Source: an uncultured Actinomycetes bacterium (GTDB lineage: Bacteria; Actinomycetota; Thermoleophilia; Gaiellales; JAICJC01). Taken from it: a DNA stretch of 64,000 nucleotides. The stretch spans positions 1,153,134 through 1,217,133 of the forward strand of contig CAWCNL010000002.1 of the NCBI GenBank assembly GCA_963796875.1, in the 5' to 3' direction. The notes beneath the pieces are model-generated. The model was not told the origin of the DNA. It saw nothing but the letters and a program-made list of their open reading frames with translations, and ran no database searches. Positions 3,582-52,184 of the stretch are shown here, piece by piece; position 1 is the first letter of the stretch; every line of letters begins with the position of its first letter. Made by a program: the position numbers and the translations under genes.

Positions 3582-3632
3582 GGGGGTAACGGCCCCCCCG
3601 GAGAAGGCCGTTGGGTGGAGCCGCGGTTTGGG

Positions 3633-7827: not shown

Positions 7828-7834
7828 TGAAGGG

Positions 7835-8744: not shown

Positions 8745-8761
8745 CGTGGCCTGCGATAGGG

Positions 8762-9733: not shown

Positions 9734-10608
9734 CGACCGACTCAACTGTGCTGCACATCCCCGCCGGCGCCGCCGCCGAGGGCGGTGATCCGCTGGCACT
9801 GACTCCGGAGCGCTGCGGGTGGGAGTTCTGCGGGCTGCGGGTGATCGAGCTGGAGCCCGGGCACAGCCGCGATCTGGCCACCGGCGGCGACGAGCTGGCG
9901 GTGCTGCCGCTGGAGGGCGGGCTGAGGGTCGAGGTGGAGGGCGCCACCCACGATCTGGAGGGCCGCGAATCAGTGTTCGACCGGGTTACCGACGCCGTCT
10001 ATCTGCCCCGCGACACCGAGGCCCGGCTGGTGGCCGACCGCCGCTGCCAGGTGGCGCTGCCGTCGTGTCCGGCGCGCACCCGCCGCGAAGTTGCCTACAT
10101 CGATGCCCGCGCCGTGGCCATCGAGATCCGCGGCGCCGGCCGCTCGACCCGGCAGGTGACCAACTTCCTGACGCCCGAGGTCGCGCTGCCCGATCGGCTG
10201 CTGTGCTGCGAAGTGCTGACGCCCCGCGGCAACTGGTCGAGCTATCCGCCGCACAAGCACGACACGCCCGGCGGCGTCGAGGCGGTGCTCGAGGAGATCT
10301 ACTACTTCCGCGTGGAGGGTCCAGACGGCATGGCCGCGCACCGCACCTACGACCTGGAGGAGGGGTGGGACGTCACCGTCACGATCGGCGACGGTGACGT
10401 GTTCCTGATCCCGCGCGGGTATCACGGCCCGTGCATGGCCTCGCCCAACAGCGCCCTCTGGTACCTGAACGTGCTCGCCGGCCCCGAGCCCGAGCGATCG
10501 ATGGCGATCAGCGACGATCCTGCGCACGCGTGGATCCGGCAGAGCTGGGAGGCAGAACCCCGCGACGAGCGCGTGCCCATGACCTCGGCCTACGGGAAGC
10601 ACGCATGA
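9730..10608 (+). CDS. iolB: 5-deoxy-glucuronate isomerase
   Basis: 292-aa cupin-type ORF overlapping the iolC stop by 4 nt. Sits in the conserved iolC-iolB-iolD context. Confidence 0.8.
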   Translation: MTTDSTVLHIPAGAAAEGGDPLALTPERCGWEFCGLRVIELEPGHSRDLATGGDELAVLPLEGGLRVEVEGATHDLEGRESVFDRVTDAVYLPRDTEARLVADRRCQVALPSCPARTRREVAYIDARAVAIEIRGAGRSTRQVTNFLTPEVALPDRLLCCEVLTPRGNWSSYPPHKHDTPGGVEAVLEEIYYFRVEGPDGMAAHRTYDLEEGWDVTVTIGDGDVFLIPRGYHGPCMASPNSALWYLNVLAGPEPERSMAISDDPAHAWIRQSWEAEPRDERVPMTSAYGKHA

Positions 10609-12461
10609 GCGACACCGTGCGGCTCACCACCGGACAGGCCATCGTCCGCTTTCTGGCGGCGCAGTGGACGGTGCGTGACGGCGTCGAGCGACCGCTCTTT
10701 GCCGGGGTGCTCGGAATCTTCGGGCACGGCAACGTCGCGGGCCTCGGCCAGGCGCTGATGCAGGAGCGCGACACGCTCACCTACGTGCCCGCGCGAAACG
10801 AGCAGGCGATGGTGCACATCGCCTCGGCGTACGCCAAGGCGTCCAACCGCATGCAGGCGTGGGCCTGCACGTCGTCGATCGGCCCGGGCGCCACCAACAT
10901 GGTCACCGGCGCGGCGCTTGCCACCATCAACCGGCTGCCGGTGCTGCTCTTGCCCGGCGACGTCTTTGCCAACCGCCGGCCGGGGGCGGTGCTGCAGCAG
11001 CTCGAGCAGCCCGGCTCGCTCGAGACCAGCGTGAACGATGCCTTTCGTCCGGTGTGCCGCTACTGGGATCGCATCTGGCGCCCCGACCAGCTGCCGTCGG
11101 CGCTGCTTGCGGCCACCCGGGTGCTGACCGACCAGGCCGAGACCGGAGCGGTCTGCCTTGCGCTACCGCAGGATGTGCAGGCCGAGGCGTGGGACTTCCC
11201 CGTCGAGCTGTTTGAGCAGCGCAAGTGGGTGATCGACCGGCAGCCGCCGCCGCTCGAGCGCCTCGACCGGGCCGCCGAGTTGATCCGCGACGCGCGCCGG
11301 CCGGTGATCGTGGCCGGCGGCGGAGTGATCTACAGCGAGGCCACCGATGCCCTGCGCGCGCTGGTCGATGCAACCGGAATCCCGGTGTGCGAGACCCAGG
11401 CCGGCAAGGGCGCGATGCCCTACGACCACCCTGCCGCCCTCGGCGCGGCCGGTGCCACCGGCACGTTTGCCGCAAACGTGGTGCTGCGCGACGCCGACCT
11501 CGTGATCGGCGTCGGCACCCGTTACAGCGACTTCACCACCGCCTCGCAGTCGGCCTTTGCCGCCGACGCGCGGTTCGTCAACCTGAACGCGGCCGCGGTC
11601 GACGCGCACAAGCAGTCCGCGCTGCCCGTGGTGGGCGACGCGCGCGCCGCGCTCGAGCTGCTGGCAGCCGCGCTCACCGGGCATGCGGTGGACGAGGGCT
11701 ACCGCGCGCGAAATGCCGAGCTCGTGCGCGAGTGGGACGCCGAGGTCGAGCGGCTCTACTCCCGCGGCGGCGGCCCCATCTTCGCCCAGTCGACAGTGAT
11801 CGGCGCGGTCAACGATCTGTCCCAGCCCGAAGACGTGGTGGTGTGCGCGGCCGGCAGCCTGCCCGGCGACCTGCACAAGCTGTGGCGCACGCGCGACCCC
11901 AAGGGCTACCACCTGGAGTACGGCTACTCGTGCATGGGCTACGAGCTGCCCGGCGGCATCGGCGTGCGCATGGCATCGCCCGCACGCGAGGTGTTCGTGA
12001 TGGTCGGCGACGGCAGCTGGCTGATGATGCCGGGCGAGCTCGCCACCGCCATCCAGCAGCACATCAAGCTCGTGATCGTCCTGATCGACAGCGGCGGGTA
12101 CGCGTCCATCGGCGCGCTCTCCGACTCGGTCGGCACGCAGCGGTTCGGCACGCAGCTGCTCGATGTCGACGGCCAGCCGCTGGGCATCGACCTGGCCGCG
12201 AATCTCGAGAGCTACGGCATCGACGTGCTGCGGCCGCAGACGATCCCCGAGCTGCGCGAGTCCGTGGCAACCGCGCGGGCGGCCATGCAGACCACCGCGA
12301 TCTACGTGCGCACCGATCCGCTGGTCGGCGTGCCCGGCTACGAGTCGTGGTGGGACGTACCGGTCGCCGAGGTCAGCACCGTCGAGACGGTGCAGCAGGC
12401 CCGCGCCGCCTACGAGGCCGCCTTGGCCAAGGTCCACCGCCACCTCAAGCCCCCTGAATAA
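10605..12461 (+). CDS. iolD: 3D-(3,5/4)-trihydroxycyclohexane-1,2-dione acylhydrolase (ThDP enzyme)
   Basis: From ATG 10605 (ATGA overlap with the iolB stop). MSDTVRLTTGQAIVRFL.., ThDP-binding fold, 618 aa. Confidence 0.85.
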   Translation: MSDTVRLTTGQAIVRFLAAQWTVRDGVERPLFAGVLGIFGHGNVAGLGQALMQERDTLTYVPARNEQAMVHIASAYAKASNRMQAWACTSSIGPGATNMVTGAALATINRLPVLLLPGDVFANRRPGAVLQQLEQPGSLETSVNDAFRPVCRYWDRIWRPDQLPSALLAATRVLTDQAETGAVCLALPQDVQAEAWDFPVELFEQRKWVIDRQPPPLERLDRAAELIRDARRPVIVAGGGVIYSEATDALRALVDATGIPVCETQAGKGAMPYDHPAALGAAGATGTFAANVVLRDADLVIGVGTRYSDFTTASQSAFAADARFVNLNAAAVDAHKQSALPVVGDARAALELLAAALTGHAVDEGYRARNAELVREWDAEVERLYSRGGGPIFAQSTVIGAVNDLSQPEDVVVCAAGSLPGDLHKLWRTRDPKGYHLEYGYSCMGYELPGGIGVRMASPAREVFVMVGDGSWLMMPGELATAIQQHIKLVIVLIDSGGYASIGALSDSVGTQRFGTQLLDVDGQPLGIDLAANLESYGIDVLRPQTIPELRESVATARAAMQTTAIYVRTDPLVGVPGYESWWDVPVAEVSTVETVQQARAAYEAALAKVHRHLKPPE

Positions 12462-12488
12462 AAGGGGTCAGACCCCTTTAATTCAGGG
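12452..12488. repeat. simple palindromic repeat, GGGGTC-A-GACCCC family
   Basis: CCCTGAATAAAAGGGGTC A GACCCCTTTAATTCAGGG (one mismatch). Contains the iolD TAA (12459-12461) and, on the other strand, the stop of the 12483..13475 gene (12483-12485). Confidence 0.9.
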
Positions 12489-13475
12489 CGCGATGCGGAC
12501 GGTCTCGCCGGAGAGGCGCGACTGCCGAAACGCGAGACCCGCGCGCAACGCGTGGGCGGCATCCTCGACGCGGGCGTGCGGCTCGGCGCCGCCGATCGCG
12601 TCCACGAAGCAGCGCAGCTGCCGCTTGAGCGCGTCGTGGGTCACGTCGGTGCAGTCTTCCGGCGGCTCCATGACCGGACGCAGGCCGGCGGGATCGCCCA
12701 GCAGCACCTCGCCGCGATTGGCAGCGCGCACGAAGATCGACCCGCCGTCGCCCAGGATCTCGGTGCGCACGTCGTCCCAGTACCCGGCCACCCGCGTCTG
12801 GTCGATCAGCACCACCCCGCCGTTGGCGGTTGCGGCCACGCCGCCCACCGTGGGCGTGTCGCCGAGCTCGGCGTACGGATTGGGCTTCACACCGTGAGCG
12901 GTGACCGACACCATCGGCGCGCCCAGCACCAGCCGCGCCATGTCGAAGTCGTGCACGCCGCCGTCCACCTCGATGCCGCCCGAAACCTCGGCGTTCAGAA
13001 ACGCGGGGGAGGGAGGCGTCGCATCCCACATACACGAGCGCACCAGCGACGGCCGGCCGATCGCCCCGGCGGCCACCAGCCGCAGCGCCTCGGCATACGG
13101 CCAGGCCACCCGCCGCCAGAACCCGACGGCGAGCACCCGGTTGCGATCGATGGCGTGCTGGGCGAGTGCGGGGATGGCATCGGGATCGAACCCGACCGGC
13201 TTCTCGGTCAGCACGTGCAGACCCTGGTCGAGCAGCTCGGTGGCCATCTGCACGTGCAGCGGCGTCGGGGCGGCGGTAACCACCGCGTCCACACCCACAC
13301 CGGGCAGCTGGTCGATCCGCTCGAGCGCGGCAACTCCCGGCGGCGCCAGCCGCTGCGCCACGCCAGGTGCGGGATCGACGATCGCCACCAGCTCGACCTC
13401 CGAAACCTCGAGCGCGGCGGCGATGTGCGTACGGCCCATGCGGCCCGCCCCAACCACGGCCAGTTTCACGCTCAT
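12483..13475 (-). CDS. Gfo/Idh/MocA family oxidoreductase (inositol 2-dehydrogenase-like)
   Basis: Internal ATG 13475 of ORF 12483..13757. MSVKLAVVGAGRMGRTH Rossmann N-terminus. ATGA overlap with the upstream LacI gene stop. Confidence 0.8.
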   Translation of the reverse strand: MSVKLAVVGAGRMGRTHIAAALEVSEVELVAIVDPAPGVAQRLAPPGVAALERIDQLPGVGVDAVVTAAPTPLHVQMATELLDQGLHVLTEKPVGFDPDAIPALAQHAIDRNRVLAVGFWRRVAWPYAEALRLVAAGAIGRPSLVRSCMWDATPPSPAFLNAEVSGGIEVDGGVHDFDMARLVLGAPMVSVTAHGVKPNPYAELGDTPTVGGVAATANGGVVLIDQTRVAGYWDDVRTEILGDGGSIFVRAANRGEVLLGDPAGLRPVMEPPEDCTDVTHDALKRQLRCFVDAIGGAEPHARVEDAAHALRAGLAFRQSRLSGETVRIAP

Positions 13476-14425
13476 GCCGCCGCCCTGACCGGAGCGGTCG
13501 AGCTGCGCACCACCAACCGCGGCGGGATGCGCGTGACGTCGGCCGGCATGGTGCCGGTGCGCAGCGCGCGCACGAGCATGGTCGCCGCGGCCCGGCCCAC
13601 GGCCGGCACGTCGGTGGCCACGGTGGTCAGCTGGAGCCGCACGTGGGCGCCGAGGGGAATGCCGTCGTAGCCCACCACCGAGACGTCGGTTGGTACCCGG
13701 CGGCCCTCGCGCTCGAGTTCGTCGATCACTGCGATCGCCGTCACGTCGTCGTGGCACACGATGGCGGTGGCCTCCCAGCGGTCGGCGGTCAGCTGCATGC
13801 CGAGTTCCGAGACGGCGCGCTCCAGAAGGTCGCCGCGCAGCTCCGCGCCGGCCTCGTTGACCACGGCGTGGCGGGCAAACGCGATGCGGCGGTGGCCCAG
13901 CTCGTGCAGGTGTCCGGCGATCGCCCGAATGCCGATCTCGTCGCAGGCATCGACCCGCCCGATCCCCGCGCGGCTCGCTCCGGCAGCCGCCGCCATGACC
14001 GCGGGCACGCCCGAACGCGACAGTCGCTCCTCCACCTGCGATCCGCGGGTCAGGCCGGCCACGATCACCCCGTCGGCGCGACGTTCGAGCAGCGCCTCGA
14101 TCTGCGCCTCTTCGACCTCGGCGTCTGCGTCGGTACCCACCATCACGAGGCCGAACTCGAACCGCCGCAGCTCGCGCTCCACGGCCACGGCAAGCTGGGC
14201 GTAGAAGGGGTTGACGGCATCAGGCACGATCATGCCGACCAGTCCCGTGCTGCCGCGGCGCAGCGCGCGCGCCACGCCGTCGGGCCGGTAGCCCAGCTCG
14301 TCGATGGCGGTCTCGACCCGCGCGCGCGTTGACGGCGCCACCACCGCGCTGCCGCGCACCACGTTCGAGACGGTCGACTTGGAGACGCGCGCCCGGCGGG
14401 CGACGTCGATCAGGGTTGCCGGCAT
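13472..14425 (-). CDS. LacI family transcriptional regulator (candidate inositol repressor)
   Basis: 317-aa ORF. N-terminal HTH MPATLIDVARRARVSKSTVSNVVRG plus a periplasmic-binding-protein-like sugar-binding fold. Confidence 0.85.
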   Translation of the reverse strand: MPATLIDVARRARVSKSTVSNVVRGSAVVAPSTRARVETAIDELGYRPDGVARALRRGSTGLVGMIVPDAVNPFYAQLAVAVERELRRFEFGLVMVGTDADAEVEEAQIEALLERRADGVIVAGLTRGSQVEERLSRSGVPAVMAAAAGASRAGIGRVDACDEIGIRAIAGHLHELGHRRIAFARHAVVNEAGAELRGDLLERAVSELGMQLTADRWEATAIVCHDDVTAIAVIDELEREGRRVPTDVSVVGYDGIPLGAHVRLQLTTVATDVPAVGRAAATMLVRALRTGTMPADVTRIPPRLVVRSSTAPVRAAA

Positions 14426-15531
14426 CCCGCAGCCTCTTGGAACGCCTGCACCAGCAGGTCGACGTCGGCGGCGGCGTCACGCGCCGTCACCCGCACCCGG
14501 CCGCCGCCGGTGATGGCAGTGTGGAAGTCGCGCAGCTCGCTGCGAAACGCCTCCTCGTAGCTGACCCGGATCGTGCGCTCATCGAGGCCGATCTTGCCGT
14601 CGGCCGTGCGCACCGTGAAGCTGGTCACGAAGTGCCGCAGGTACGGCGACGGGAACAGCAGCTCGATGATGCGGTCGGTGCAGTAGACGGTCATCCGCTC
14701 GCGGTAGTCGGGCACGCCGGCGTTCTTCAGGTGTGCCATCCGCGCGCGGCCGCCCCCCGGCAGCGCGACCGACATCTCGACCGCGCGGCCCTCGTCCCAG
14801 TAGGCGGCCGACACCAGCTGCAGCGGCAGTTCGGCGCCGTAGTGCGCAGCAATGCCGTGCACCAGGCTCAGGTTGTGCACCAGGCAGCCTAGATAGCCGT
14901 CGTGGGCGGTCATCTCGGCGTCGGTCGGCTCGCGGCCGGCCACCCCCGCCGCCATCGCCCGGGTCTGCGCGCGCAGCGCGACCCCCACCAGAGGATCGAT
15001 GTCGCCGCCGTGCGACCACGGCATGTGGCTCACGAACGGCAGGAAGTCGGGGTCGGTGATCTCGATCGAAACGGTGCGGATGTCGGCCGGGTCGTCCGGC
15101 AGCGTCTCGAGCAGCCGCTCGAAGCTGGGGTCGTAGCGCTTCATCGTGCCCACCTGCACCACGAGGCCGGCGGCCTCGGCGCGGTCGGCCACCGCGGCAC
15201 AGTCCTCGGCGGTCAGCGCCAGCGGCTTCTCGCAGAACACGTGCATGCCGGCGTCGAGCGCCGCCAGCGCGATCTCGGCGTGCACCGCGTCGGGCGCGGC
15301 GATCACCACGGCGTCGAGGCCGAGGCCCACGAGTCCCTCGATACCGTCGTGCAGCTCGGTCGCGCCGTAGCGCGCACCCACACCCTCGCGGGCCTTCGCC
15401 GAGGGGTCGGCCACGGCCACCAGTTCGAACCGCTCGCGCTCCTCCCACAGATAGAACGCGTGCTCGGCCTGGGCGATCAGGCCCACTCCAACCAACCCCA
15501 CTCGCAGTCTGCGCATACCGTCTGACGTCAT
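14410..15531 (-). CDS. Gfo/Idh/MocA family oxidoreductase
   Basis: Conserved part of ORF 14410..16233, from ATG 15531 (alternative start 15516). ..RVGLVGVGLIAQAEH.. and EKPLALT motifs. Confidence 0.8.
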   Translation of the reverse strand: MTSDGMRRLRVGLVGVGLIAQAEHAFYLWEERERFELVAVADPSAKAREGVGARYGATELHDGIEGLVGLGLDAVVIAAPDAVHAEIALAALDAGMHVFCEKPLALTAEDCAAVADRAEAAGLVVQVGTMKRYDPSFERLLETLPDDPADIRTVSIEITDPDFLPFVSHMPWSHGGDIDPLVGVALRAQTRAMAAGVAGREPTDAEMTAHDGYLGCLVHNLSLVHGIAAHYGAELPLQLVSAAYWDEGRAVEMSVALPGGGRARMAHLKNAGVPDYRERMTVYCTDRIIELLFPSPYLRHFVTSFTVRTADGKIGLDERTIRVSYEEAFRSELRDFHTAITGGGRVRVTARDAAADVDLLVQAFQEAAGCRQP

Positions 15532-15544
15532 CGACCCTCGCTCG

Positions 15545-15558
15545 TTGGAACGCTCCAA
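15545..15558. promoter_or_regulatory. candidate LacI-family operator
   Basis: TTGGAACGCTCCAA: a 14-nt palindrome (6 of 7 pairs) with the central CG typical of LacI/GalR operators. Lies in the 48-nt gap between divergent iol genes. Confidence 0.4.
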
Positions 15559-15579
15559 ACTGCGATAGCATACCGCGCC

Positions 15580-16497
15580 ATGCCCATTCGAATTGCATCC
15601 GCACCCTGCTCCTACGGCGTCTTTGAGATCACCGTCGACCAACCCGGCCTGCCCGAGGGCGAAGAGCTCGCCCGCGTGATGGCCGAATCCGGCTACGCCG
15701 GCACCGAGCTGGGGCCTCCCGGCTACTTTGGCACCGGCCCCGCGGTGGGCCGCATGCTCGCCTCGCACGGCCTCGAGCTGATGGGGTCGTTTCTGCCGCT
15801 GAGCTTCTCGCGGGCCGAGCAGTTCGGCACCGACTACGAGGCCATGGACCGCGCGCTCGACACGCTCGAGACCGCCGGTGGCGACGAGTTGCCGGTGGTG
15901 CTGCTGTCCGACGCGTTCGTCGAGCCCGACCGCATCAGGTACGCCGGCGACATCGAGAACCACCCCGAGACCTGGCTCGACGAGGCGCGGTTCGCGCTGC
16001 TGATCGAGAACCTCGAGAAGGCAGCCGGCCGCTGCCGCGAGCGGGGGTTCACCGCGTCGCTGCACTACCACGCCGGCACCTACGTCGAGACTCCGCGCGA
16101 GATCGATGCGGTGGTGGCGGCCATCGACACCTCCACGGTCGGGCTGTGCTTCGACACCGGTCACAGCGCGTTTGGCGGCGGCGATCCGCTGGAGCTGCTC
16201 GAGCGCCACGGCGAAGCGGTCAACCACGTGCACATGAAGGACGTCGACCTCGAGGGCCTGCGCCGGCTTCGCGAGGACGGCGGCGACCTGATCGCCGCAT
16301 GGAAGGCGGGCATCTTCTGCGCGCTCGGTACCGGCGATGCGCGGGTGTCGGAGTGCCTGGATCAGCTGCGTGCGCGCGGCTATGACGGGTGGCTGGTGGT
16401 GGAGCAGGATCGCGTGCTGGGCCCTGACGAGCCGTTCGATGTGGCCGTCAGCGACGGCGTCAAGAACCGCGAGTTTCTGCGAGAGCGCGGCCTGTGA
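15580..16497 (+). CDS. sugar phosphate isomerase/epimerase (xylose-isomerase-like TIM barrel; IolE-like inosose dehydratase candidate)
   Basis: 305-aa ORF in the iol cluster, with ..HYHAGTYVETP.. and ..CFDTGH.. metal-site-like segments. Confidence 0.65.
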   Translation: MPIRIASAPCSYGVFEITVDQPGLPEGEELARVMAESGYAGTELGPPGYFGTGPAVGRMLASHGLELMGSFLPLSFSRAEQFGTDYEAMDRALDTLETAGGDELPVVLLSDAFVEPDRIRYAGDIENHPETWLDEARFALLIENLEKAAGRCRERGFTASLHYHAGTYVETPREIDAVVAAIDTSTVGLCFDTGHSAFGGGDPLELLERHGEAVNHVHMKDVDLEGLRRLREDGGDLIAAWKAGIFCALGTGDARVSECLDQLRARGYDGWLVVEQDRVLGPDEPFDVAVSDGVKNREFLRERGL

Positions 16498-17444
16498 GTG
16501 ACCGCGCGGCCGAGCTCGGCCGGCGCCGCAGACTGCATCGCATCACCCGCGACGGCGTTTTCGCACTGGTTGCGATCGATCACCGAGATTCGCTTCAGGT
16601 GGCGTTCGAGGGCGCGGGGCTCGAGCCGCTCAGCGGTGCCGAGATCGCCGAGTTCAAGGGCCGGGTGATCGATGCGCTGACTCCCGCCGCCACCGGCGTG
16701 CTGATCGACGCCGAGCACGGCGCCCAGGCACTGGCCGGCGGGTCTGCCGCGGCGCTTTCCGTGGTGATGCCGCTCGAGGCGCAGGGCTACGGCGACGCTG
16801 CGCAGGGCCGCACGTCATCGTTTCTACCCAACTGGGGGCCCGACCGCGCAGTCCGCGCGGGGGCCGATGCCTGCAAGCTCCTGCTGCCGTTCCGGGCCGA
16901 TCACGACGCGTCCGCGGAGGCACAGCTGGAAGTGGTGCGCCAGGCCGTGGCGGGTTGCCGCGCGGCCGGCCTTCCGTTGATTCTCGAGCCGATCGTCTAT
17001 CCGCTTCCCGGCGAGGACGCGGCCGTGTATGCGGCAGCGTTCCCCGAGCATGTGGTGCGCGGCGCCGAGCGCCTGCAGGCCCTCGAGCCGGACGTGCTCA
17101 AGGTGCAGTTTCCCGTCACCGAAGGCGACGCTGCCGAGTGGTGCCGGCGCATCGACGCGGCCTGTGGGCCGGTGCCGTGGGTGCTTCTGGGCGGCGGCGC
17201 GGCGGTCGACGTGTTTCGCGAACAGGTCGAGGTGGCCTGCGCGGCAGGGGCATCCGGCTACATCGTCGGGCGCACCGCCTGGAAGGGCGCGGTCACGGCC
17301 GATACCGCCGCCCGCGACCGGTGGCTGGTGGAGGTGGGCCGGCCGCAGCTGGCCGCGATCCGCGACCGCGCGCTGCAGATCGCCCGGCCGTGGACCGACC
17401 GCGTGGCGCCGCTGCCCGAGTACGCGAGCAGCTGGCTGGAGTGA
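16494..17444 (+). CDS. class I aldolase-like (beta/alpha)8 protein (LacD/IolJ-like; candidate 5-dehydro-2-deoxyphosphogluconate aldolase)
   Basis: 316-aa ORF with a GTG start overlapping the upstream stop. Sits in the iol context. The family assignment rests on overall resemblance only. Confidence 0.55.
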   Translation: MSDRAAELGRRRRLHRITRDGVFALVAIDHRDSLQVAFEGAGLEPLSGAEIAEFKGRVIDALTPAATGVLIDAEHGAQALAGGSAAALSVVMPLEAQGYGDAAQGRTSSFLPNWGPDRAVRAGADACKLLLPFRADHDASAEAQLEVVRQAVAGCRAAGLPLILEPIVYPLPGEDAAVYAAAFPEHVVRGAERLQALEPDVLKVQFPVTEGDAAEWCRRIDAACGPVPWVLLGGGAAVDVFREQVEVACAAGASGYIVGRTAWKGAVTADTAARDRWLVEVGRPQLAAIRDRALQIARPWTDRVAPLPEYASSWLE

Positions 17445-17538
17445 ATAAGAGGGGTCAGTCGCCATTTATTCACACCGCTTCGGTCGGGCACTTCACGCCG
17501 ACCACGTGAATAAATGGCGACTGACCCCTCTTATGCAC
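17441..17538. repeat. composite palindromic element (98 bp; 33-nt arms, 32-nt spacer), GTGAATAA subtype
   Basis: Left arm GTGAATAAGAGGGGTCAGTCGCCATTTATTCAC; right arm GTGAATAAATGGCGACTGACCCCTCTTATGCAC (one mismatch). Contains the stops of both convergent genes (TGA 17442-17444; TAA on minus at 17531-17533). Confidence 0.9.
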
Positions 17539-18682
17539 GCGGGTCGAAGACGACCTTCATCGCCTCGTCGCGGGCGCTCAGGTCGATCGCATGGGCGCAG
17601 TCGTCCAGCGCCAGCTGATGCGTGACGAACTCGGTCAGCGGCATGTGCTCGCGCTGCTCTGACATCAGCCGCAGCGCCGCCGGGTAGGCGGGCAGCACCT
17701 CGCCCGCCACGCCGATCACCAGGATGCTCTTCATGCACAGATGCCGGTTCGCGTTGATGCGCGTGTCGCCCATGTCGACGAACGCGCCCGGTTCGATCAG
17801 CGTGCCACCCATCCGCAAGAGCTCGATCGCCTCCAGAACCGCATCGCCGACGCCGGTGCAGTCGATCACCACGTCGGCGCCCTGCCCGCCCGTCAGCTGC
17901 AGCACCGCGGCGCGGCGCTCGGCGGCGTTGGTGAGACTCGCGTCCAGGCAGAGCCCCGCCCCGAACTTCGCCGCGTGCGCCAGCCGGTTGGGCAGGCGAT
18001 CGATCGCGACGATCCGCCCCGCGCCCATGGCCCGCGCCTTGATCAGGTGGCAGAGACCCAGCGGGCCGAGTCCGAGCAGCACCACCGTGCAGCCCGGTTC
18101 GAACCCGCCGCCCGAGGCGGTCATCGCCGCCGCCGAGTCCAGCCCGTGCGTGACCGCCATCGGCTCGGTCAGCACAGCCACCTCGTCGGGCACGTCGTCC
18201 GGCACGCGAAAGAGGTGGGTGCCGGGCAGCAGGTACATCATCTCGGCCCATCCGCCGAACAGCCCCGGCGGCCGGCTCAGCGTGAGGCTGTTGCCGTAGT
18301 CCTCCAGCCGGTCGCACATGAAGTACGGCCGGCCGGCGCGGCACGGCGGACACTCGCCGCACTCGATGTTGGCGGCGATCACCACCCGGTCGCCCGCGTG
18401 TAGCGGCGTGCCGTCGGCGGCGTCGCGCAGCTGGGTGCCGGGGCCGAGCTGCTCCAGTGTGCCGACCACCTCGTGGCCGCAGATCAGCGGATAGTCGATG
18501 CCGTGCTCGTGGTCGGTGCCCGCGTACTGCAGACTCTCGCCGCGAAACGTGTGTTTGTCGGTGCCGCAGATACCCGCCAGATGCACCCTCAGCGTCGCAG
18601 CTCCCGGCCCCGGGGTGGGCAGGTCGAACGTGCGCACCGCGATCCGGCCGGGCTCCTCGATGACGACTGCGCGCACGTCCAC
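17531..18682 (-). CDS. zinc-dependent alcohol/polyol dehydrogenase (MDR family)
   Basis: ORF 17531..18730 with ..GICGTDKHTF.., ..PLICGHEVVG.. and a structural-zinc CGECPPC motif. GTG 18682, just after the upstream stop, is preferred over TTG 18730. Confidence 0.8.
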   Translation of the reverse strand: MDVRAVVIEEPGRIAVRTFDLPTPGPGAATLRVHLAGICGTDKHTFRGESLQYAGTDHEHGIDYPLICGHEVVGTLEQLGPGTQLRDAADGTPLHAGDRVVIAANIECGECPPCRAGRPYFMCDRLEDYGNSLTLSRPPGLFGGWAEMMYLLPGTHLFRVPDDVPDEVAVLTEPMAVTHGLDSAAAMTASGGGFEPGCTVVLLGLGPLGLCHLIKARAMGAGRIVAIDRLPNRLAHAAKFGAGLCLDASLTNAAERRAAVLQLTGGQGADVVIDCTGVGDAVLEAIELLRMGGTLIEPGAFVDMGDTRINANRHLCMKSILVIGVAGEVLPAYPAALRLMSEQREHMPLTEFVTHQLALDDCAHAIDLSARDEAMKVVFDPRA

Positions 18683-18683
18683 G

Positions 18684-19517
18684 TCAGGTACGCAGGCGGC
18701 GCACTCCGCGCATCGCCAGGGGGATCGCAAATCCGATCAGCGCGGTCAGGAGCGTCAGGCCCAGCAGCACCGATGCGAGTGCGTTCACCTCGGGGGTGAT
18801 GCCGAACTTGACCTGCGTGTAGATGTAGATCGGAAGCGTGTTCTGGCCGCCGATCAGAAAGAGCGTGATGATGAACTCGTCGAGCGAGAGCGTGAAGGCG
18901 AACAGCCCTCCGGCCACCACCGCGGGCAGGATCAGCGGCAGCACGATGAACCGCAGCCGGTTGAACATGTTCGCGCCCAGGTCGCCCGCGGCCAGCTCGA
19001 GCCGGCGGTCAAAGCTCTGCAGCCTGGCCGCCACGATCAGCATGACAAACGGGGTCACATAAACTGCCTGGCCGATCACCGCCGTCTCGTTGGAGAGCGT
19101 GTAATGCAGCACGTCGGTGAAGAGCGCGAGCAGCCCGACGCCGATCAGAAGGCCCGGGATCATGATCGGCAGCATGAACCCGGCGCGCACGCCCGACCGG
19201 AACGGCAGCCGGGCGCGGGCCAGCGGGAACGCCGCGGCGGTGCCCACGACCGTCGCAAGGATGGTCACCTGCGTGCTGATCTTGAGGCTGGTGATCGCCG
19301 CCTGCTGGATCTGGTAGTCGGCGAACATCTCGCGGTACCAGCTCAGCGTGAGGCCCTGGATCGGCAGCGTTGGGTAGCGGTTGCTGTTGAAGCTGAACAG
19401 CACCAGCAGCACCACCGGGGCGAACAGGAACAGGTAGACGATCGCGGCCCAGACCAGCAGGCTGGTGCGGGCAAGTGTGCCGTGGCGGGCAACGACCTCT
19501 GCGTCTCTAGCCGGCAT
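18684..19517 (-). CDS. ABC transporter permease (PotC-like)
   Basis: 277-aa polytopic ORF of the binding-protein-dependent transport inner-membrane family. Overlaps the upstream permease gene by 11 nt. Confidence 0.8.
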   Translation of the reverse strand: MPARDAEVVARHGTLARTSLLVWAAIVYLFLFAPVVLLVLFSFNSNRYPTLPIQGLTLSWYREMFADYQIQQAAITSLKISTQVTILATVVGTAAAFPLARARLPFRSGVRAGFMLPIMIPGLLIGVGLLALFTDVLHYTLSNETAVIGQAVYVTPFVMLIVAARLQSFDRRLELAAGDLGANMFNRLRFIVLPLILPAVVAGGLFAFTLSLDEFIITLFLIGGQNTLPIYIYTQVKFGITPEVNALASVLLGLTLLTALIGFAIPLAMRGVRRLRT

Positions 19518-20427
19518 ACACGTCGTCCACGTCGATCTGCTTGCGGAACAGGATCAGCAGGAGCACGATGAACACTGCGACCAGGATCGCCGCAGCCGCC
19601 CCGCGGGTGTACTCGGCGCCCTGGAAGAAGTTCGCGATCAGGTTTCCGATCATCACGCCCTGCACGCCGCCGATCAGCTGCGGCGTGAGGTACTCGCCCA
19701 GCACCGGCACGAAGACGAAGATCACGGCGGTCGCGACGCCGGCGCGCACCTGCGGCAGAAGGATGCGGCGCAGGGCCGTCAGCGGCGGCGCCCCCAGGTC
19801 CATGGCCGCGGTCAGCTGGGCCCAGTCGAACCGCTCGAGCGCCGAGTAGAGCGTCAGCGCGGCGAACGGGAAGTACAGGTACACCAGCACCAGGATCACC
19901 GACTCGCGGTTGTAGAGCAGAAACGACAGCGGGTGGTGAATGATTCCGAGGTCCATCAGCACGCGGTTCAGGACGCCCTTCTCGCCCAGGATCGTGATCC
20001 AGGCGTACACGCGCAGCAGGTAGCTGGCCCAGAACGGCAGGATTACCAATAGAAGCAGCGGCCGGCGGATGCCGGGCGACACGTGCCGAGCCAGGAAGTA
20101 GGCGAACGGGAACGCCGCGGCGATGGTAATCGCGGTGGCGGCCGCCGCCATCCAGAGCGTCGCCCACAGCGTGCGCACGTAGGTCGGCACCGAGAAGAAG
20201 TAGCGGTAGTTGTCGAGCGTCCAGTGGTGGACGACGTTGTAGTCGATCGTCACCCAGAAGCTGTACGCGACGATTAGCAGCATCGGCAGCACGAAGAAGC
20301 AGCCGAACAGGATCAGGGCAGGGCCGAAGCCGGCCAGCTCCATGAACCGGCCCTTGGCTCCCGAGCCGGGCTCGGCCCCCGCCCGCGCGGCGGGCGGGGG
20401 CACCAGTGCACGTGGTTCGTCGACCAC
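19507..20427 (-). CDS. ABC transporter permease (PotB-like)
   Basis: 306-aa polytopic ORF. An alternative start at ~20343 (MELAGFG..) is possible. Confidence 0.8.
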   Translation of the reverse strand: MVDEPRALVPPPAARAGAEPGSGAKGRFMELAGFGPALILFGCFFVLPMLLIVAYSFWVTIDYNVVHHWTLDNYRYFFSVPTYVRTLWATLWMAAAATAITIAAAFPFAYFLARHVSPGIRRPLLLLVILPFWASYLLRVYAWITILGEKGVLNRVLMDLGIIHHPLSFLLYNRESVILVLVYLYFPFAALTLYSALERFDWAQLTAAMDLGAPPLTALRRILLPQVRAGVATAVIFVFVPVLGEYLTPQLIGGVQGVMIGNLIANFFQGAEYTRGAAAAILVAVFIVLLLILFRKQIDVDDVYAG

Positions 20428-20431
20428 CGGG

Positions 20432-21547
20432 TTAGGCGCCGAACACCTCGTTGAAGGTGTCGGTAACCGCCTGGGTGTTGCCCGACGGACCCTTCAGCGT
20501 CATCTGCAGAGCCAGCTCGGGCTTGTTGTAGAGCAGCTTGTCGGCGCGCTCCTTCTCACCCTGGTTGACCAGGATCTTGTAGGCCGCCTCGTTGAACAGC
20601 GGCCGGCCGTTGGTGATGAAGTTCTTGGCGATCCAGGGTCCGCGCTCCATCGCGTTGATAAACGGGATGAACAGATCGGCCTTGTTGGCGGCCTTGACGA
20701 TCTGCTCGCAGTCGATGAATCCGTAGGTGCCTTCCTTGGGGTATGCCGCCAGCACCGTCGGCCCGCCCGCGTCCTTGACGCGGTACTCGGTGCCGAGGTT
20801 CTCGAGTGCGATCCAGGCCGAGCCGTCGGTCAGTGCCGCCACCGATTCGGTGTTCTGTGACACCAGCTTGAGGATGTTTGGCTTGAGCTCGGTCAGGAAC
20901 TGCTTCGACTTGGAGAGCTCGGCCGACGTCTGGTTGTACGGATCCTTTGCGCCCGTCGCGCGGCCGGCCATCGCCACCAGATCGGTGGGCTGGTTCTCGG
21001 CCACGATCTTGCTCTTGTAGGCCGGGTTGAGCAGCGCGTGCCACGAGTCGGGCTTGGTGGTCACATTCGTCGGGTTGTAGTAGATCTGGATTGTCGACCA
21101 GGCGAACGGGTAGCCGATCGCCTTGCCGTCAGCCTGGAAGAACGGGAAGTTGCGCGCCATCGGATACAGCTCCTTGGACGCGCCGATCTCGTTGATGTCG
21201 AAGCCCTCGGTGAGGCCGTCCTGATAGAACTTCGGCGCCCACAGAGCGTCGATCGACGCCTGGCCGAACTGGCCGCCGGTCTGCTTGATCTTGAGGTAGC
21301 CGTCCGCGTCGTCGGAGAACAGTGTGGGGGTGACCTGGATGCCGGTCTGCGCCGCAACGGCCTTGATCTGCTGCGGACTCCAGTGGTCTGACCATGTCAG
21401 CCAGTCCATCGAGCCGGTGGCGTGGCCGCCGCTCGAGCTGGTGCTGGACGACGACGACGACGAACCGCACGCCGCCGCGTACAGGCTGAGCGCACCAAGC
21501 GCGCCCGCGCCGAGAGCGCCTCGCCTGGTGACCCGTCTCTCTGTCAT
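20432..21547 (-). CDS. ABC transporter substrate-binding lipoprotein (PotD/PotF-like, solute-binding family 1)
   Basis: 371-aa ORF. Twin-arginine-like N-terminus MTERRVTRRGALGAG with lipobox-like LYAAAC followed by a Ser-rich linker. Confidence 0.8.
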   Translation of the reverse strand: MTERRVTRRGALGAGALGALSLYAAACGSSSSSSSTSSSGGHATGSMDWLTWSDHWSPQQIKAVAAQTGIQVTPTLFSDDADGYLKIKQTGGQFGQASIDALWAPKFYQDGLTEGFDINEIGASKELYPMARNFPFFQADGKAIGYPFAWSTIQIYYNPTNVTTKPDSWHALLNPAYKSKIVAENQPTDLVAMAGRATGAKDPYNQTSAELSKSKQFLTELKPNILKLVSQNTESVAALTDGSAWIALENLGTEYRVKDAGGPTVLAAYPKEGTYGFIDCEQIVKAANKADLFIPFINAMERGPWIAKNFITNGRPLFNEAAYKILVNQGEKERADKLLYNKPELALQMTLKGPSGNTQAVTDTFNEVFGA

Positions 21548-22665
21548 GTGTCTCCTCCTTGAGTGTTCGGGACGTCGGGATCGAACACGACGATGTCCTT
21601 GCGGTCCCAGGTCAGGGTGACGCGGTCGCCGGCACGCGCCGTAACGGAGTCCGCCGATGCGCCGAAATGCCAGGCAGTGACGGGCTCCTCCATGCCATCC
21701 ACAGACGCAACTACGCGCAGGTAGCTGCCGAGAAAAGCGATCTTGACGATGGTGGCGGGCAGTCCAGGCTCGCCCGCGGGGGAGATCAGGGTGTGCTCGG
21801 GCCGGATCATCACGGTGGTCGGCCCGTCGTGGTGCTCGGTGGTTACCGGGAGGTGGACGCCTCCGGGGCCGGTAACGGCCCCTCGCTCGATGACGACGTC
21901 GACGAAGTTCGACTCGCCGATGAAGTCGGCCACGAAGCGGTTGACCGGCCGCCGGTAGATCTCCTCGGGCGTGCCCACCTGCTCGACACGGCCGTCGTTC
22001 ATGACGGCGATCCGATTGGCCATCGACATGGCCTCCTCCTGGTCGTGGGTGACCAGCACGAAGGTGGTGTCGAGGTTGGCGTGGATCTGCGCCAGCTCGA
22101 TCTGCAGGCGTTTGCGCAGCTTCAGATCGAGCGCGCCGAGCGGTTCGTCGAGCAACAGCACGGCGGGCTTGTTGACCAGCGCCCGGGCCACCGCCACGCG
22201 CTGCTGCTGGCCACCGGAAAGCTGCGTGGGCAGGCGGTCGGCGAACTCGTCGAGGGCCACCATCGAGAGCGCCTCGGCCACCCGGGTCTTGCTCTCACCG
22301 CGCGGCACCTTGGCCATCTTCAGGCCGAACCCGACGTTGTCGGTGACGGTCATGTGCGGGAACAGCGCGTAGCTCTGGAACACGGTGTTGACCGCGCGCT
22401 TGTGCGGCGGCACCTGATCGACCCGCTCGCCGCGGATGTGCACCTCGCCGGACGAGGCGCCTACGAACCCGCCGATCACGTTCAGCGTGGTGGTCTTGCC
22501 GCACCCCGACGGGCCGAGCAGGCAGAAGAACTCGCCCTCCTGGATGTCGAGGTCGACCGGCTCGAGCGCCACCTGGCTGCCGTAGCGCTTGGAGACTCCG
22601 CGCAGCGAGATCGCCGGCCGATCGGTCGCTGCTGCGGTTTCGACCGCGCTCGGCTCGGCGCTCAT
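21544..22665 (-). CDS. ABC transporter ATP-binding protein (PotA-like)
   Basis: From ATG 22665 inside ORF 21544..23025. Walker A GPSGCGKTT, signature LSGGQQQRV, Walker B LLLDEP, and a C-terminal TOBE-like regulatory domain. Confidence 0.9.
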   Translation of the reverse strand: MSAEPSAVETAAATDRPAISLRGVSKRYGSQVALEPVDLDIQEGEFFCLLGPSGCGKTTTLNVIGGFVGASSGEVHIRGERVDQVPPHKRAVNTVFQSYALFPHMTVTDNVGFGLKMAKVPRGESKTRVAEALSMVALDEFADRLPTQLSGGQQQRVAVARALVNKPAVLLLDEPLGALDLKLRKRLQIELAQIHANLDTTFVLVTHDQEEAMSMANRIAVMNDGRVEQVGTPEEIYRRPVNRFVADFIGESNFVDVVIERGAVTGPGGVHLPVTTEHHDGPTTVMIRPEHTLISPAGEPGLPATIVKIAFLGSYLRVVASVDGMEEPVTAWHFGASADSVTARAGDRVTLTWDRKDIVVFDPDVPNTQGGDT

Positions 22666-23711
22666 GACGCCCCTCCGCAGCCGCACGAGCGGCGCACCTT
22701 GAGCGAGACCCCCACTCGGTGCTCTCCGCCGGCGCGCTCCTGCTCGACCGACTCGATCAGCATCGCGGCGGCATCGCGGCCGAGCTCGGCGGCGTCGTAG
22801 GCGACCGAGGTGAGCGGCGGGTCGAGGTAGCGGCCGTAGTAGGGATCGTCGAAGCACACCAGGGCCAGATCCGCCGGCACCCGCAGACCGCGATCGCCGG
22901 CGGCGGCCAGCGCACCCAGGGCGAGCTCGGCAGATGCCGCGACGATCGCGTCGGGTCGCGGGTCGACGGCGAGCGCGGTGTTGACCGCCTCGCGGGCCGA
23001 TTCGACCGCCCACGTGCACTCCCACACCGACTGTTCGACCGCGCGATCGTGGCCGGCCACTGCCTGTTCGAACCCGCTGCGGCGCTCGGCGCCCGACGTT
23101 CCGAGGTCGGGTCCGACCAGCAGTGCCAGCCGCTCGTGCCCATGGTCTTCGATGAGGTGGTCAACCAGAAGTTGCATGCCCCGCCCGTTCTCGATACGGA
23201 CGTTGCCGGCCCCACCCTCCGGAACGATGTCGTCTATGAAGATACAGGGTGGATCAGCCGGCTGCACAGCCGCGCGGAACTCGCCGGGCGAAACGCCGGC
23301 GGTGCAGACCAGCAGCCCGTCCACCTGATGTTCGACCAGCAACCGTAGTGCGGCGACCTCGCGGGCGGTCTCCTGATCGGAGTCCATCAGGATCAGCCGG
23401 TAGCCGGCGTCGTCGAGAATCGCTTCGGCGCCCTTGAGGATGGCCGCGTAGAACGGGTGGGCAACGTCGGGCACCACCAGGCCGATCGTGTGGCTCTTGC
23501 GCATGCGCAGCGACCGCGCCAGCGGCGAGGGGCGGAAGTCGAGTGTGGCAGCCGCGGCCACGACCGCAGCGCGTGTCTTGGTGGACACATCTCCTCGGCC
23601 GTTCAGCGCGCGCGACGCCGTGGACGGCGAGACACGCGCGAGCCTGGCGACGTCCTCGAGTCGCGTACGGGTCGCCTCGGGGTTGGACCGGAATCGATTG
23701 TGGTAACTCAA
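22662..23711 (-). CDS. LacI family transcriptional regulator
   Basis: HTH ..LEDVARLARVSPSTASRALNG.. plus a sugar-binding fold. TTG 23711 chosen within ORF 22662..23858. The stop overlaps the ATPase start (ATGA). Confidence 0.8.
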   Translation of the reverse strand: MSYHNRFRSNPEATRTRLEDVARLARVSPSTASRALNGRGDVSTKTRAAVVAAAATLDFRPSPLARSLRMRKSHTIGLVVPDVAHPFYAAILKGAEAILDDAGYRLILMDSDQETAREVAALRLLVEHQVDGLLVCTAGVSPGEFRAAVQPADPPCIFIDDIVPEGGAGNVRIENGRGMQLLVDHLIEDHGHERLALLVGPDLGTSGAERRSGFEQAVAGHDRAVEQSVWECTWAVESAREAVNTALAVDPRPDAIVAASAELALGALAAAGDRGLRVPADLALVCFDDPYYGRYLDPPLTSVAYDAAELGRDAAAMLIESVEQERAGGEHRVGVSLKVRRSCGCGGAS

Positions 23712-23804
23712 GGCGCCGACTATCGCGCAGCGCGCGGGCTGTGTCAAGCGATCCGTTTCACAAACCAGTAACAGTGCTGTAGCGGGTGGTGTGACACCTG
23801 TGCG

Positions 23805-24446
23805 GTGCGCTTTAGACTGAGCGTGATGGGACAGGAGATCGTGTGCACGGCCCGCCACGCCGGCGCGGCGTCAGAAGGCAGGGCTCAGCTCGAGACCGAC
23901 GAGCTGCGTTTTCGCGGCGAGTTTCGGGTGGTCGTGCCCTTCGCCCAGGTGCGCGGTGCCCGCGCCGACGGCGGCACGCTGGTGCTGGAGTACCCCGGCG
24001 GCCCGCTCGAACTGGAACTGGGCGACCGCGCGGTCAAATGGGCGCACGCCATCCTGCACCCCAAGAGCGTCGTCGAGAAGCTGGGCGTGAAACCGGGCCA
24101 GCGGGTCGGGCTGGAACACCTGCCCGACTCGGCGTTCGCGCGGCAGGTCGAGGAGCGCGGGGCCGAGCTGGTGGAGAGTGGCGGCGACCTGGATCACCTG
24201 TTCGTGGGCGCCGAGAGTGAGGCCGACCTGGCCGGTGTCGCCGCGCTGCGCGCGCGGTTGGCCCCCGACGGCGGTCTCTGGCTGGTGCGACCCAAGGGCA
24301 AGCACGGCCTGGCCGAGTCGGCGGTGTTTGCCGCAGGCCGAGGGGCCGGCCTGACCGACGTCAAGGTGGTGCGGTTCTCCGCCACGCACACGGCCTACCG
24401 CTTCGTCATCCCGGTGGCCGAGCGTAAGGAGGTGGCTCCCGAATGA
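23805..24446 (+). CDS. hypothetical protein (DUF3052-like C-terminal half)
   Basis: 213-aa ORF with good high-GC codon bias. The segment ..SVVEKLGVKPGQRVGL.. resembles DUF3052 proteins. The start may be ATG 23826. Confidence 0.5.
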   Translation: MRFRLSVMGQEIVCTARHAGAASEGRAQLETDELRFRGEFRVVVPFAQVRGARADGGTLVLEYPGGPLELELGDRAVKWAHAILHPKSVVEKLGVKPGQRVGLEHLPDSAFARQVEERGAELVESGGDLDHLFVGAESEADLAGVAALRARLAPDGGLWLVRPKGKHGLAESAVFAAGRGAGLTDVKVVRFSATHTAYRFVIPVAERKEVAPE

Positions 24447-24510
24447 ACACCTCGTTGCGCTTCGCGGTGGCGCCCGGTGCAGGAAAACGCACACCGCGTT
24501 GCCAGGCACG

Positions 24511-24547
24511 TCGATCGTTGCCACCACCACCGCGCCCTGCGCCTCAC
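24511..24547. repeat. 37-nt dispersed repeat, copy 1
   Basis: TCGATCGTTGCCACCACCACCGCGCCCTGCGCCTCAC matches 52141-52177 at 35 of 37 positions. Intergenic. Confidence 0.8.
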
Positions 24548-24575
24548 GACGGCGCTCCTTCGGGAGCCACCTCCC

Positions 24576-26282: not shown

Positions 26283-26283
26283 A

Positions 26284-26374: not shown

Positions 26375-26375
26375 T

Positions 26376-52177: not shown

Positions 52178-52184
52178 CTCAGGA

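Follow-up and report, generated by a model that had tools for sequence, protein, structure and literature searches.

Inverted hairpin doublets at gene ends in a Gaiellales-like actinomycete, probably REPIN-like members of a RAYT/TIRYT-associated repeat family

We analyzed a 64,000-nt stretch of DNA from an uncultured Actinomycetes bacterium (NCBI GenBank assembly GCA_963796875.1, contig CAWCNL010000002.1, positions 1,153,134 to 1,217,133 of the forward strand; hereafter the window), in which six long composite palindromes and three shorter ones lie at the ends of genes. The G+C content of the window is about 70%; its genes were called by third-position G+C, and the neighbors of the elements were checked with Pfam. 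The original prediction, made from the sequence, had described six composite palindromes, each with two paired arms around a 31–34-nt spacer and with no coding potential. To locate them independently of any motif, we scanned the whole window for inverted repeats. The same six emerged as the top six pairs, with arms of 27–34 nt that are 94–100% complementary and loops of 31–34 nt, and the elements indeed have no coding potential. That inventory of six was right as far as it went; it missed three free-standing 33-nt palindromes (here singlets) and a second palindrome family. The positions, folds, and gene contexts are collected in Table 1, where each element is named by its first nucleotide.

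All nine elements directly follow the 3' end of a gene: five lie between convergent genes, four between tandem genes, and none between divergent genes. The six composites alone divide evenly, three between convergent and three between tandem genes, again with none between divergent genes. This placement contradicts the earlier view that the orientation of the flanking genes is irrelevant. The neighboring genes are functionally unrelated and include genes for purine synthesis, sugar kinases, regulators, and an acyl ligase.

Table 1. Palindromic elements of the window and transposase loci of relatives. Scan arms are given as left / right arm, arm length, complementarity, and loop length (nt); folds are for single-stranded DNA.
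Feature	Coordinates	Sequence	Inverted-repeat scan	Fold (kcal/mol; z)	Context
Composite 8647, subfamily B (8648 in the original prediction)	8647–8744	arms GTGCATAAAGGGGTCAGCCACCTTTTGTGCAT + complement, 34-nt spacer	8648–8678 / 8713–8743, 31, 100%, 34	-44.2; -12.5	ABC-2 permease gene (+, ends 8549) / PfkB kinase gene (+, starts 8762)
Composite 17441, subfamily A	17441–17538	arms GTGAATAAGAGGGGTCAGTCGCCATTTATTCAC + complement (1 mismatch), 32-nt spacer	17441–17473 / 17506–17538, 33, 97%, 32	-40; -12.9	convergent DeoC-type aldolase gene (+) / Zn-dependent alcohol dehydrogenase (ADH) gene (-); stops inside termini: aldolase TGA 17442–17444, ADH TAA 17531–17533 (- strand)
Composite 26278, subfamily C3 (26284 in the original prediction)	26278–26374	arms ..AGAAAGTGTCAGGCAGTTGTTATTCAC + complement, 31-nt spacer, left terminus degenerate	26284–26310 / 26342–26368, 27, 100%, 31	-37.8; -11.3	convergent HAD hydrolase gene (+, ends 26282) / purH (-, ends about 26371–26376)
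Composite 36305, subfamily A	36305–36402	perfect 33-nt arms, 32-nt spacer	36305–36337 / 36370–36402, 33, 100%, 32	-47.1; -14.4	5 nt past purE stop (-, 36407–36895); 84 nt ahead of purB start (-, 34902–36221)
Composite 45944, subfamily B (45949 in the original prediction)	45944–46041	outer termini degenerate; 34-nt spacer homologous to 8647 spacer	45943–45975 / 46010–46042, 33, 94%, 34	-38.2; -8.4	adjoins stop (46042) of PucR-type regulator gene (-); next downstream gene also -
Composite 53538, subfamily C1	53538–53639	arms GTGAATAGAAGGGGTCAGCGCAGTTTCTATTCAC + complement (1 mismatch), 34-nt spacer	53538–53571 / 53606–53639, 34, 97%, 34	-45.9; -13.5	convergent IclR regulator gene (+) / AMP-ligase gene (-); both TAG stops inside termini
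Singlet 3485	3485–3517	ATGAATAAAAGGGGTCTGACCCCTTTTATTCAT, perfect palindrome		-13.9; -7.6	70 nt past GH18 gene (+)
Singlet 12454	12454–12486	CTGAATAAAAGGGGTCAGACCCCTTTAATTCAG			between convergent genes; TAA stop of + gene 10431–12461 inside
Singlet 52184	52184–52216	ATGAATAACAGGGGTCAGACCCCTGTTATTCAC		-14.5; -7.5	between convergent Usp gene (+) and flavin reductase gene (-, stop 52230)
Second family, 33-nt units	6823–6855, 38205–38237, 60207–60239	ACGCATAC-NNN-GTGCC-A-GGCAC-NNN-GTATGCGT			
Second family, other copies	38536–38564, 61626–61664	GCAACAAAC-GTGCC-T-GGCAC-GTTTGTTGC			
Transposase locus, L013	3110–7935				M20 peptidase gene, transposase gene, metH
Transposase locus, L115	8800–14221				M20 peptidase gene, transposase gene, metH
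Transposase locus, L116	4562–7178				M20 peptidase gene, transposase gene, metH
Transposase locus, L117	8810–13123				M20 peptidase gene, transposase gene, metH

The elements share a core and a pair of ends. The core GGGGTCAG is found in five of the six composites (the 26278 copy reads GTGTCAG instead), in all three singlets, and in the flanks of transposase genes in three related loci described below (L013, L041, and L116). A degenerate form of the core pattern occurs 12 times in the window vs 0.22 expected, and the terminal octamer GTGAATAA 11 times vs 0.10. As a correction to the original description, the left terminus of the 26278 copy and both termini of the 45944 copy are degenerate. Units begin with [ACG]TGAATA (GTGA, ATGA, or CTGA), and those of subfamily B with GTGC. 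The statement that the GGGGTCAG arm always lies on the left of the + strand proved to be a tautology, true of any inverted repeat: only the spacer defines an orientation. By that measure the two subfamily B copies point the same way, 8647 between + genes and 45944 between - genes.

The unit of the family is a 33-nt palindrome, [ACG]TGAATA-GGGGTC-W-GACCCC-TATTCA, which the three singlets of the window carry in the form [ACG]TGAATAA-NN-GGGGTC-W-GACCCC-NN-TTATTCA. Measured as units, all twelve composite arms are 32–34 nt long; each matches the singlets in length and carries both 8-nt ends, GTGAATAA...TTATTCAC. The arms are thus full units, two of which make up a composite as an inverted doublet. 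The inner half of the unit stem has diverged in these doublets (GACCCC to GTCGCC, GCCACC, and others), so that a diverged arm pairs poorly with itself yet perfectly with its partner. Within the window, units that are not self-complementary occur only as inverted pairs (6/6) and self-complementary ones only alone (3/3). The unit is multi-copy, with three free palindromes and twelve arm units, all of them extragenic or at the extreme ends of genes. A nested origin, in which ~65 nt had been placed in the loop of a simple palindrome, was also considered; we rejected it because each arm has both ends of a full unit.

Two other kinds of palindrome lie in the window. The second family has the core GTGCC-W-GGCAC, with five matches vs 0.1 expected; the NNN positions of its 33-nt units covary (CTC/GAG, AAA/TTT, CCC/GGG), and the core recurs in inverted repeats around the transposase gene of locus L115. 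An ordinary terminator-like hairpin, GAGCCGAGGCTCCCTGCAGCTAGGGAGCCTCGGCTTTTGG, lies at 3544–3585, 30 nt past the 3485 singlet, indicating that this genome also uses conventional structures with a G+C stem and a T-tract.

Folded as single-stranded DNA, each of the six composites formed a single long hairpin of -38 to -47 kcal/mol (z -8 to -14), compared to about -11 to -16 kcal/mol for shuffled sequences. The long stem was the minimum-free-energy structure in all six. We then counted pairing between the arms in eight copies, the six of the window and two from a relative, with a script that took the GTCAG/CTGAC cores as anchors. The script was preferred to a MAFFT alignment, in which a one-base length difference in subfamily B fell in non-symmetrical columns. 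The spacer-proximal halves of the arms were Watson–Crick paired in 121/121 cells, even though this half differs between subfamilies at most positions (TCGCCATTTATTCAC, CCACCTTTTGTGCAT, CGCAGTTTCTATTCAC, GCAGTTTCTATTCAC, and GCAGTTGTTATTCAC). Because the inner halves vary by subfamily and still stay paired, the arm-to-arm covariation claimed in the original prediction is genuine. In the outer halves, by contrast, 11/101 cells were not paired (Fisher p = 1.3e-4), a difference indicating that decay is concentrated where the termini touch coding sequence.

Subfamilies A and B also hold together outside the stem. As had been observed before, the 17441 and 36305 copies have identical left arms and right arms 1 nt apart; overall they differ at 1/66 arm positions and 4/32 spacer positions. 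The two subfamily B copies have 28/34 spacer positions in common. Spacer similarity within these two subfamilies was well above background (z 9.1 in A, 7.9 in B), and spacers of different subfamilies are unrelated.

The ends of the elements contribute directly to the reading frames that they adjoin. On each strand, the sequences GTGAATAA and TTATTCAC supply TGA and TAA (or TAG) in two frames, and the termini contain the stop codons of at least five genes of the window, as well as those of the transposase genes in L013, L041, and L051. The singlets have GGGGTC/GACCCC stems and TTTTATT on both strands; the composites lack a T-tract after the stem. A scan for consensus terminators flagged no element (four sites were found in the window vs a mean of 5.5 in shuffled controls), and no Rfam family reached its gathering threshold anywhere in the window. 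In a full-text literature search, the palindrome string matched only unrelated primers and viral sequences.

Comparing filled and empty sites in relatives, a check that the original prediction had named, revealed that genomes differ in which elements they carry. A close relative, L121, was reached through a cluster mate of the ADH of the window and aligns to window positions 7551–26358 at 93–94.5% nucleotide identity. Its 8647 and 26278 sites are filled, the latter with the terminus GTGAATAG intact. The 17441 site, however, is empty in L121, and the two convergent genes there share an overlap of a few codons. It is also empty in L111 (ADH 88% identical in amino acids), and on the P0003 contig there is just a 27-nt gap. 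We found no direct repeat or target duplication at the 17441 junctions when compared with the empty L121 and L111 sites, in agreement with the original reading; this is the one insertion examined, and the absence is as expected for Y1 elements. L121 has in turn an extra doublet near window position 14430, where the window has none. At the 12454 site the window carries a GGGGTC-type palindrome vs a member of the other family, GCAACAGAC-GTGCC-A-GGCAC-TGTTGTTGC, in L121, which implies that repeat families turn over or replace one another at a single site. The two genomes thus differ in three elements within 19 kb. In a more distant Gaiellales-like relative, L122 (SoxB 86% identical), 21 syntenic kb contained none of these elements, and the empty sites include those of the 45944 composite and the 52184 singlet.

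Some features of L121 deserve separate mention. Its extra doublet (arms GTGAATAGAAGGTGTCAGGCAGTTTCTATTCAC) sits inside an insertion of ~222 nt (L121 11800–12050, - strand) between two genes whose window counterparts overlap. A direct repeat, CCGCTTCCTSGAAC, bounds this insertion, and the doublet is embedded there in sequence ~95% identical to window 52054–52177, beside the 52184 singlet; the insertion may be a larger segment, duplicated or mobile, with an element inside it. The L121 ADH gene (7646–8974) was called at 442 aa vs 383 aa for the database protein P0001, which is identical to the ADH of the window; a 4-nt indel near the 3' end accounts for the difference. L121 and the window differ by dozens of gapped positions, which may reflect assembly indel errors, and the L121 gene calls are to be taken with care.

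We looked for the same palindrome in other genomes. A motif-only scan with the query TGAATAANNGGGGTCAG, one genome per species, returned at least 110 loci, many of them chance matches in AT-rich genomes. Among the matches listed, the full palindrome recurs in several uncultured actinomycete metagenome-assembled genomes (MAGs) and in one Planctomycetota MAG, long-stem composite variants are found in Beta- and Gammaproteobacteria, and actinomycete MAGs carry several single repeats on different contigs. In L013, two copies of the palindrome (4233–4266 and 5009–5041) bracket a gene for a 238-residue protein, the stop codon of which lies inside the right copy. The protein matches Pfam Y1_Tnp (E 3.9e-8) and, at residues 201–235, a C-terminal HTH_23 domain (E 6.7e-8), and it contains the motifs HYHLVL and RYVVLNP. 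The NCBIfam model NF047646, "REP-associated tyrosine transposase" (RAYT), with a cut-off of 80 bits, scored it at 87.6 bits, and scored the proteins of L117 and L115 at 81.8 and 79.7. A phmmer search of the L013 transposase against PDB sequences gave no match at E 0.01.

The pairing of this gene with the repeat is not confined to one genome. With the L013 transposase as query, tblastn found a homolog within the 8-kb locus in 10 of the 110 motif-selected loci listed; at most of these ten, GGGGTCAG-type repeats adjoin or flank the gene. The same palindrome flanks the transposase gene in L013, L041, and L116, and variant palindromes do so in L117 and L115. As terminal inverted repeats (TIRs) they bracket the Y1 gene in L013, L116, L117, and L115 (32/33 complementary in L115). 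In the relatives the flanking repeats keep the outer TGAATA/TATTCA and differ in their interiors (GGGGTCAGACCCC, CGGGCCAGGCCCC, and an asymmetric CCCGGTGCCAGGCACTCAA), and the left and right repeats stay complementary in each genome, a concerted change of both flanks. In L013 and in four further genomes or contigs, including L115, L116, and L117, an M20 peptidase gene and metH border the gene; of five related MAGs in which it was found, four have it at this position. Neither of these two flanking genes is in the window. The transposases at this fixed position are just 55–60% identical to the L013 protein, and a position kept despite such divergence points to a single-copy, vertically inherited transposase locus in this actinomycete group. 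Homologs annotated as RayT or as REP-associated tyrosine transposases are abundant in soil metagenomes and Gaiellales MAGs.

Three further observations concern these searches. A 14-nt identity, GCCTCCGCCCATGC, joins the spacer/right-arm junction of the 8647 copy (window 8710–8725) to L115 9987–10003, where it ends in the transposase start codon; the chance of this is roughly 0.005, and the remaining subfamily B copies have a different sequence at that spot. The identity is the sole hint, and a weak one, that the doublets might be TIRtrons with the open reading frame (ORF) deleted. In the Planctomycetota MAG BC3.89 (L004, L046, L053, L065, and L100), near-identical TGAATAAA-GGGGTCWGACCC-TTTATTCA palindromes occur in pairs about 15–20 nt apart, making the unit common to different phyla; tblastn found no transposase homolog within those 8-kb loci. 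A scan of metagenomes for the composite layout gave two matches, both from one AT-rich bioreactor sequence (L113 939–1001 and L114 725–787), with GGGGTCAGGCTTGAAATATTCAC, 31 nt, and GTGAATAATCCAAGCCTTACCCC directly upstream of the ATG of a possible ORF, by homology or by chance. A scan of viral contigs for the simple palindrome gave no match.

The original prediction had called the elements a REP/BIME- or MITE-like family (MITEs being miniature transposable elements with inverted repeats) that could not be matched to a named one. A match does exist. The core GGGGTCAG fits the motif GGGGWSAS of the repeats of TIRYT genes and their TIRtron units, which occur singly, as dimers, or in groups (Di Nocera et al. 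2013, PMC3733652), and the palindrome flanks a gene of this kind in related MAGs. In relatives of the window, as in TIRtrons, a Y1/HUH gene with a C-terminal HTH_23 is flanked by GGGGWSAS inverted repeats, and the repeats are dispersed as singles and dimers (three singles and six inverted dimers in the window), some of them self-complementary and with no GTAG tag. The differences from that system lie in the host, a Gaiellales-like actinomycete from a group absent from PMC3733652 and PMC6006769; in the tight 33-nt palindrome, which is "double-footed" and has stop codons within its conserved TGAATA/TATTCA ends; in the high density, nine copies in 64 kb; and in the fixed position of the gene across diverged genomes, which suggests vertical inheritance, vs the patchy pattern reported. 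Most TIRYTs belong to TnpA-Y1 subclass 2.1, of which branch 2.1.2 ends in HTH_23, HTH_28, or DnaA-C (Quentin et al. 2018, PMC6006769). Judged by domain architecture alone, the transposase of the relatives would fall roughly in subclass 2.1. The long REPs of subclass 2.4 in the same survey have a "double foot," a 5' tag with its reverse complement at the 3' end, as here (GTGA...TCAC); the tag there is GT[AG]G/C[TC]AC rather than GTGA/TCAC, and the domain layout of the protein is different.

The doublets have the architecture of BIMEs and REPINs, two inverted REP-like units, and that part of the original assignment stands. With the REPIN–RAYT systems of Pseudomonas and Enterobacteria (Bertels and Rainey 2011, PMC3116915; Bertels et al. 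2017, PMC5581495), the likeness extends to a spacer between the units and a single long hairpin, compensatory changes in the arms, coexisting subfamilies in a genome, extragenic placement, a single-copy syntenic transposase, and presence or absence that varies among close relatives. Compared with those systems, our elements have no GT[AG]G foot, a different RAYT lineage (with an extra C-terminal helix-turn-helix, HTH), and a different phylum; their ends overlap and replace the flanking stop codons; and their link to a transposase comes from the loci of relatives. The E. coli REP/BIME elements (Ton-Hoang et al. 2012, PMC3333891; Messing et al. 2012, PMC3479197) likewise consist of alternating palindromic units with short linkers, enriched past 3' ends and between convergent genes, and the TnpA-REP enzyme class is known to bind and cut the single-stranded hairpin. 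The unit sequence, guide tetranucleotide, and linker motifs all differ from ours, and our elements have no known protein partner of the kind of gyrase, IHF, or Pol I. The family thus joins the known REP/REPIN class as a new member and is not an element of a new kind. Integron attC sites and CRISPR arrays were dismissed on account of the kilobase spacing and the isolated inverted pairs, which are not runs of direct repeats; no sign of integrase or cas genes was seen among the proteins examined.

Taken together, these results make it likely that the six elements are non-autonomous, hairpin-forming REPIN-like doublets and that, with REP-like singlets beside them, they belong to a RAYT/TIRYT-associated family of this Gaiellales-like actinomycete. 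The comparison of genomes supports a doublet and singlet population that appears dense and recently active in this lineage. From the association of gene and repeat in relatives, the lack of a target duplication, and the E. coli TnpA-REP and Pseudomonas REPIN work cited above, we infer that a Y1 transposase mobilizes the elements through a single-stranded hairpin; a gene for one in the source genome is assumed. When the DNA is single-stranded, for example at a replication fork, a whole doublet would fold into a stem of ~33 bp, and a self-complementary singlet would fold alone. The transposase would recognize the foot of the hairpin and cut and rejoin single strands, so that the element is copied or moved with no target duplication, preferably into short spaces past the 3' ends of genes. 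Because both termini offer TGA and TAA or TAG on both strands, an insertion at a gene end, even between overlapping convergent genes, would re-terminate both frames and hence be tolerated. By analogy, the inserted hairpin would probably come to lie in the 3' part of transcripts, where a role as a stabilizer or as a barrier to transcription is plausible from its position.

Several points weigh against this reading. As the original prediction had found, there is no Y1 transposase gene within the 64-kb window. None of the RAYT-flanking repeats found matches the arms of subfamily A, B, or C exactly, and the metagenome scan for the composite layout (GGGGTCAG N7-9 TATTCAC N30-35 GTGAATA) gave no further true copies. 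To our knowledge, activity of a TIRYT-type transposase on its own repeats has never been shown, the biochemistry coming from E. coli TnpA-REP. The classical REP foot GT[AG]G is absent from the units, the foot GTGA being one base from GTGG. Quentin et al. report no REP-like sequences beside subclass 2.1 genes (PMC6006769). Finally, the subfamily C arms of the 53538 copy and the extra L121 copy are nearly identical (1–2 nt apart), and their spacers differ at 15/36 positions, a mismatch as compatible with doublets put together from single units as with movement in one piece.

Such assembly in place, as in BIMEs, would require two separate insertions of a 33-nt unit in opposite orientation at a preferred distance, with the single unit alone being mobile. 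Besides the subfamily C copies, the unrelated spacers of different subfamilies and the existence of free-standing units speak for it. We nevertheless consider it unlikely, since three relatives have an empty site where the window has the complete 17441 doublet, asymmetric units never occur on their own, spacer length is held tightly at 31–34 nt, and spacers within a subfamily are shared at 28/32 (17441 vs 36305) and 28/34 (8647 vs 45944) positions. The MITE half of the original assignment is disfavored. TIRs around a short non-coding core, with no transposase encoded within, are the layout of a MITE, and classical MITEs would be internally deleted insertion sequence derivatives whose DDE transposase recognizes the 33-nt TIRs as double-stranded DNA; the window contains no such parent sequence with matching ends. 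That enzyme should protect the outer termini most; the observed mismatches (0/121 inner, 11/101 outer) fit a constraint on the hairpin instead. With no target-site duplication at the 17441 junctions, and a Y1/HUH transposase as the only gene repeatedly beside the same repeats, a DDE origin is very improbable. The Correia/NEMIS, RUP, and ERIC MITEs resemble our elements in being short, non-coding, bounded by inverted repeats, located beside genes, and co-transcribed. They are moved by DDE transposases and make target duplications (TA for Correia), unlike the 17441 insertion, where no duplication was seen and the linked gene encodes a Y1 transposase.

Could the elements instead be immobile signals that the host evolved at gene ends, such as bidirectional terminators or 3' hairpins that stabilize mRNA? 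In favor of this, every copy lies just past a 3' end, half of the copies between convergent genes; the hairpins have high stability; and in the simple palindromes a G+C stem stands between an A-tract and a T-tract on both strands. Against such an origin stand the near-identical 98-nt copies 19 kb apart, the differences in presence at 93–94% genome identity, the different palindrome families at one site in two close genomes, and the same unit flanking a transposase gene in relatives; the composites, moreover, lack a T-tract and were passed over by the terminator scan. We give the idea hardly any weight as an account of origin. It fails as that only, and the elements may serve a function acquired after insertion. 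The strong predicted structure and the conserved sequence blocks would also suit genes for structured small RNAs, leaders of the riboswitch type, or operator palindromes of a DNA-binding regulator. Against these readings, no Rfam family reached threshold in the window, the elements lie at 3' ends and not in promoter or leader regions, the flanking genes are functionally unrelated, and within subfamily B the orientation relative to transcription differs (8647 with + genes, 45944 with - genes). This is the least credible of the explanations.

The REPIN-like reading leaves a question about how the doublets are distributed. The gaps between them are 8794, 8837, 10027, 9639, and 7594 nt, with a coefficient of variation of 0.10 for six doublets in one window. 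In simulations, spacing this even arose with a probability of about 1.5e-4 when points were placed at random and of about 2e-4 when gene 3' ends were drawn at random. This is a post hoc statistic from six points in one window, and the regularity vanishes with the singlets included (P about 0.02). Between the 8647 and 26278 sites, L121 likewise carries a single doublet, at ~14430 rather than 17441. One could imagine that the doublets are more than selfish DNA, in that a domesticated, vertically inherited RAYT maintains the long-hairpin doublets as chromosomal punctuation every ~9 kb, combined with two-way stops and with control of spacing, or immunity, near existing copies; we regard this joint scheme as quite improbable. 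Example roles for such punctuation, as sites of supercoil domains or nucleoid proteins, are equally speculative and would surprise us.

The doublet between genes that overlap convergently in a close relative is a clean natural case of an element giving stop codons to both of its neighbors. For annotation, these elements account for the shared last codons of many gene ends, and for assembly breaks at element sites, in such genomes. REPIN–RAYT systems have been studied almost solely in Proteobacteria, and a text search for the word Actinobacteria found no mention in the RAYT surveys PMC3733652, PMC6006769, and PMC5581495. The transposase of the relatives belongs to an HTH-bearing, TIRYT-like branch, in which one survey found no nearby REPs. 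The family described here, from a Gaiellales-like soil actinomycete, would therefore extend the picture of a domesticated transposase with a resident population of repeats to another phylum and another branch of RAYTs.

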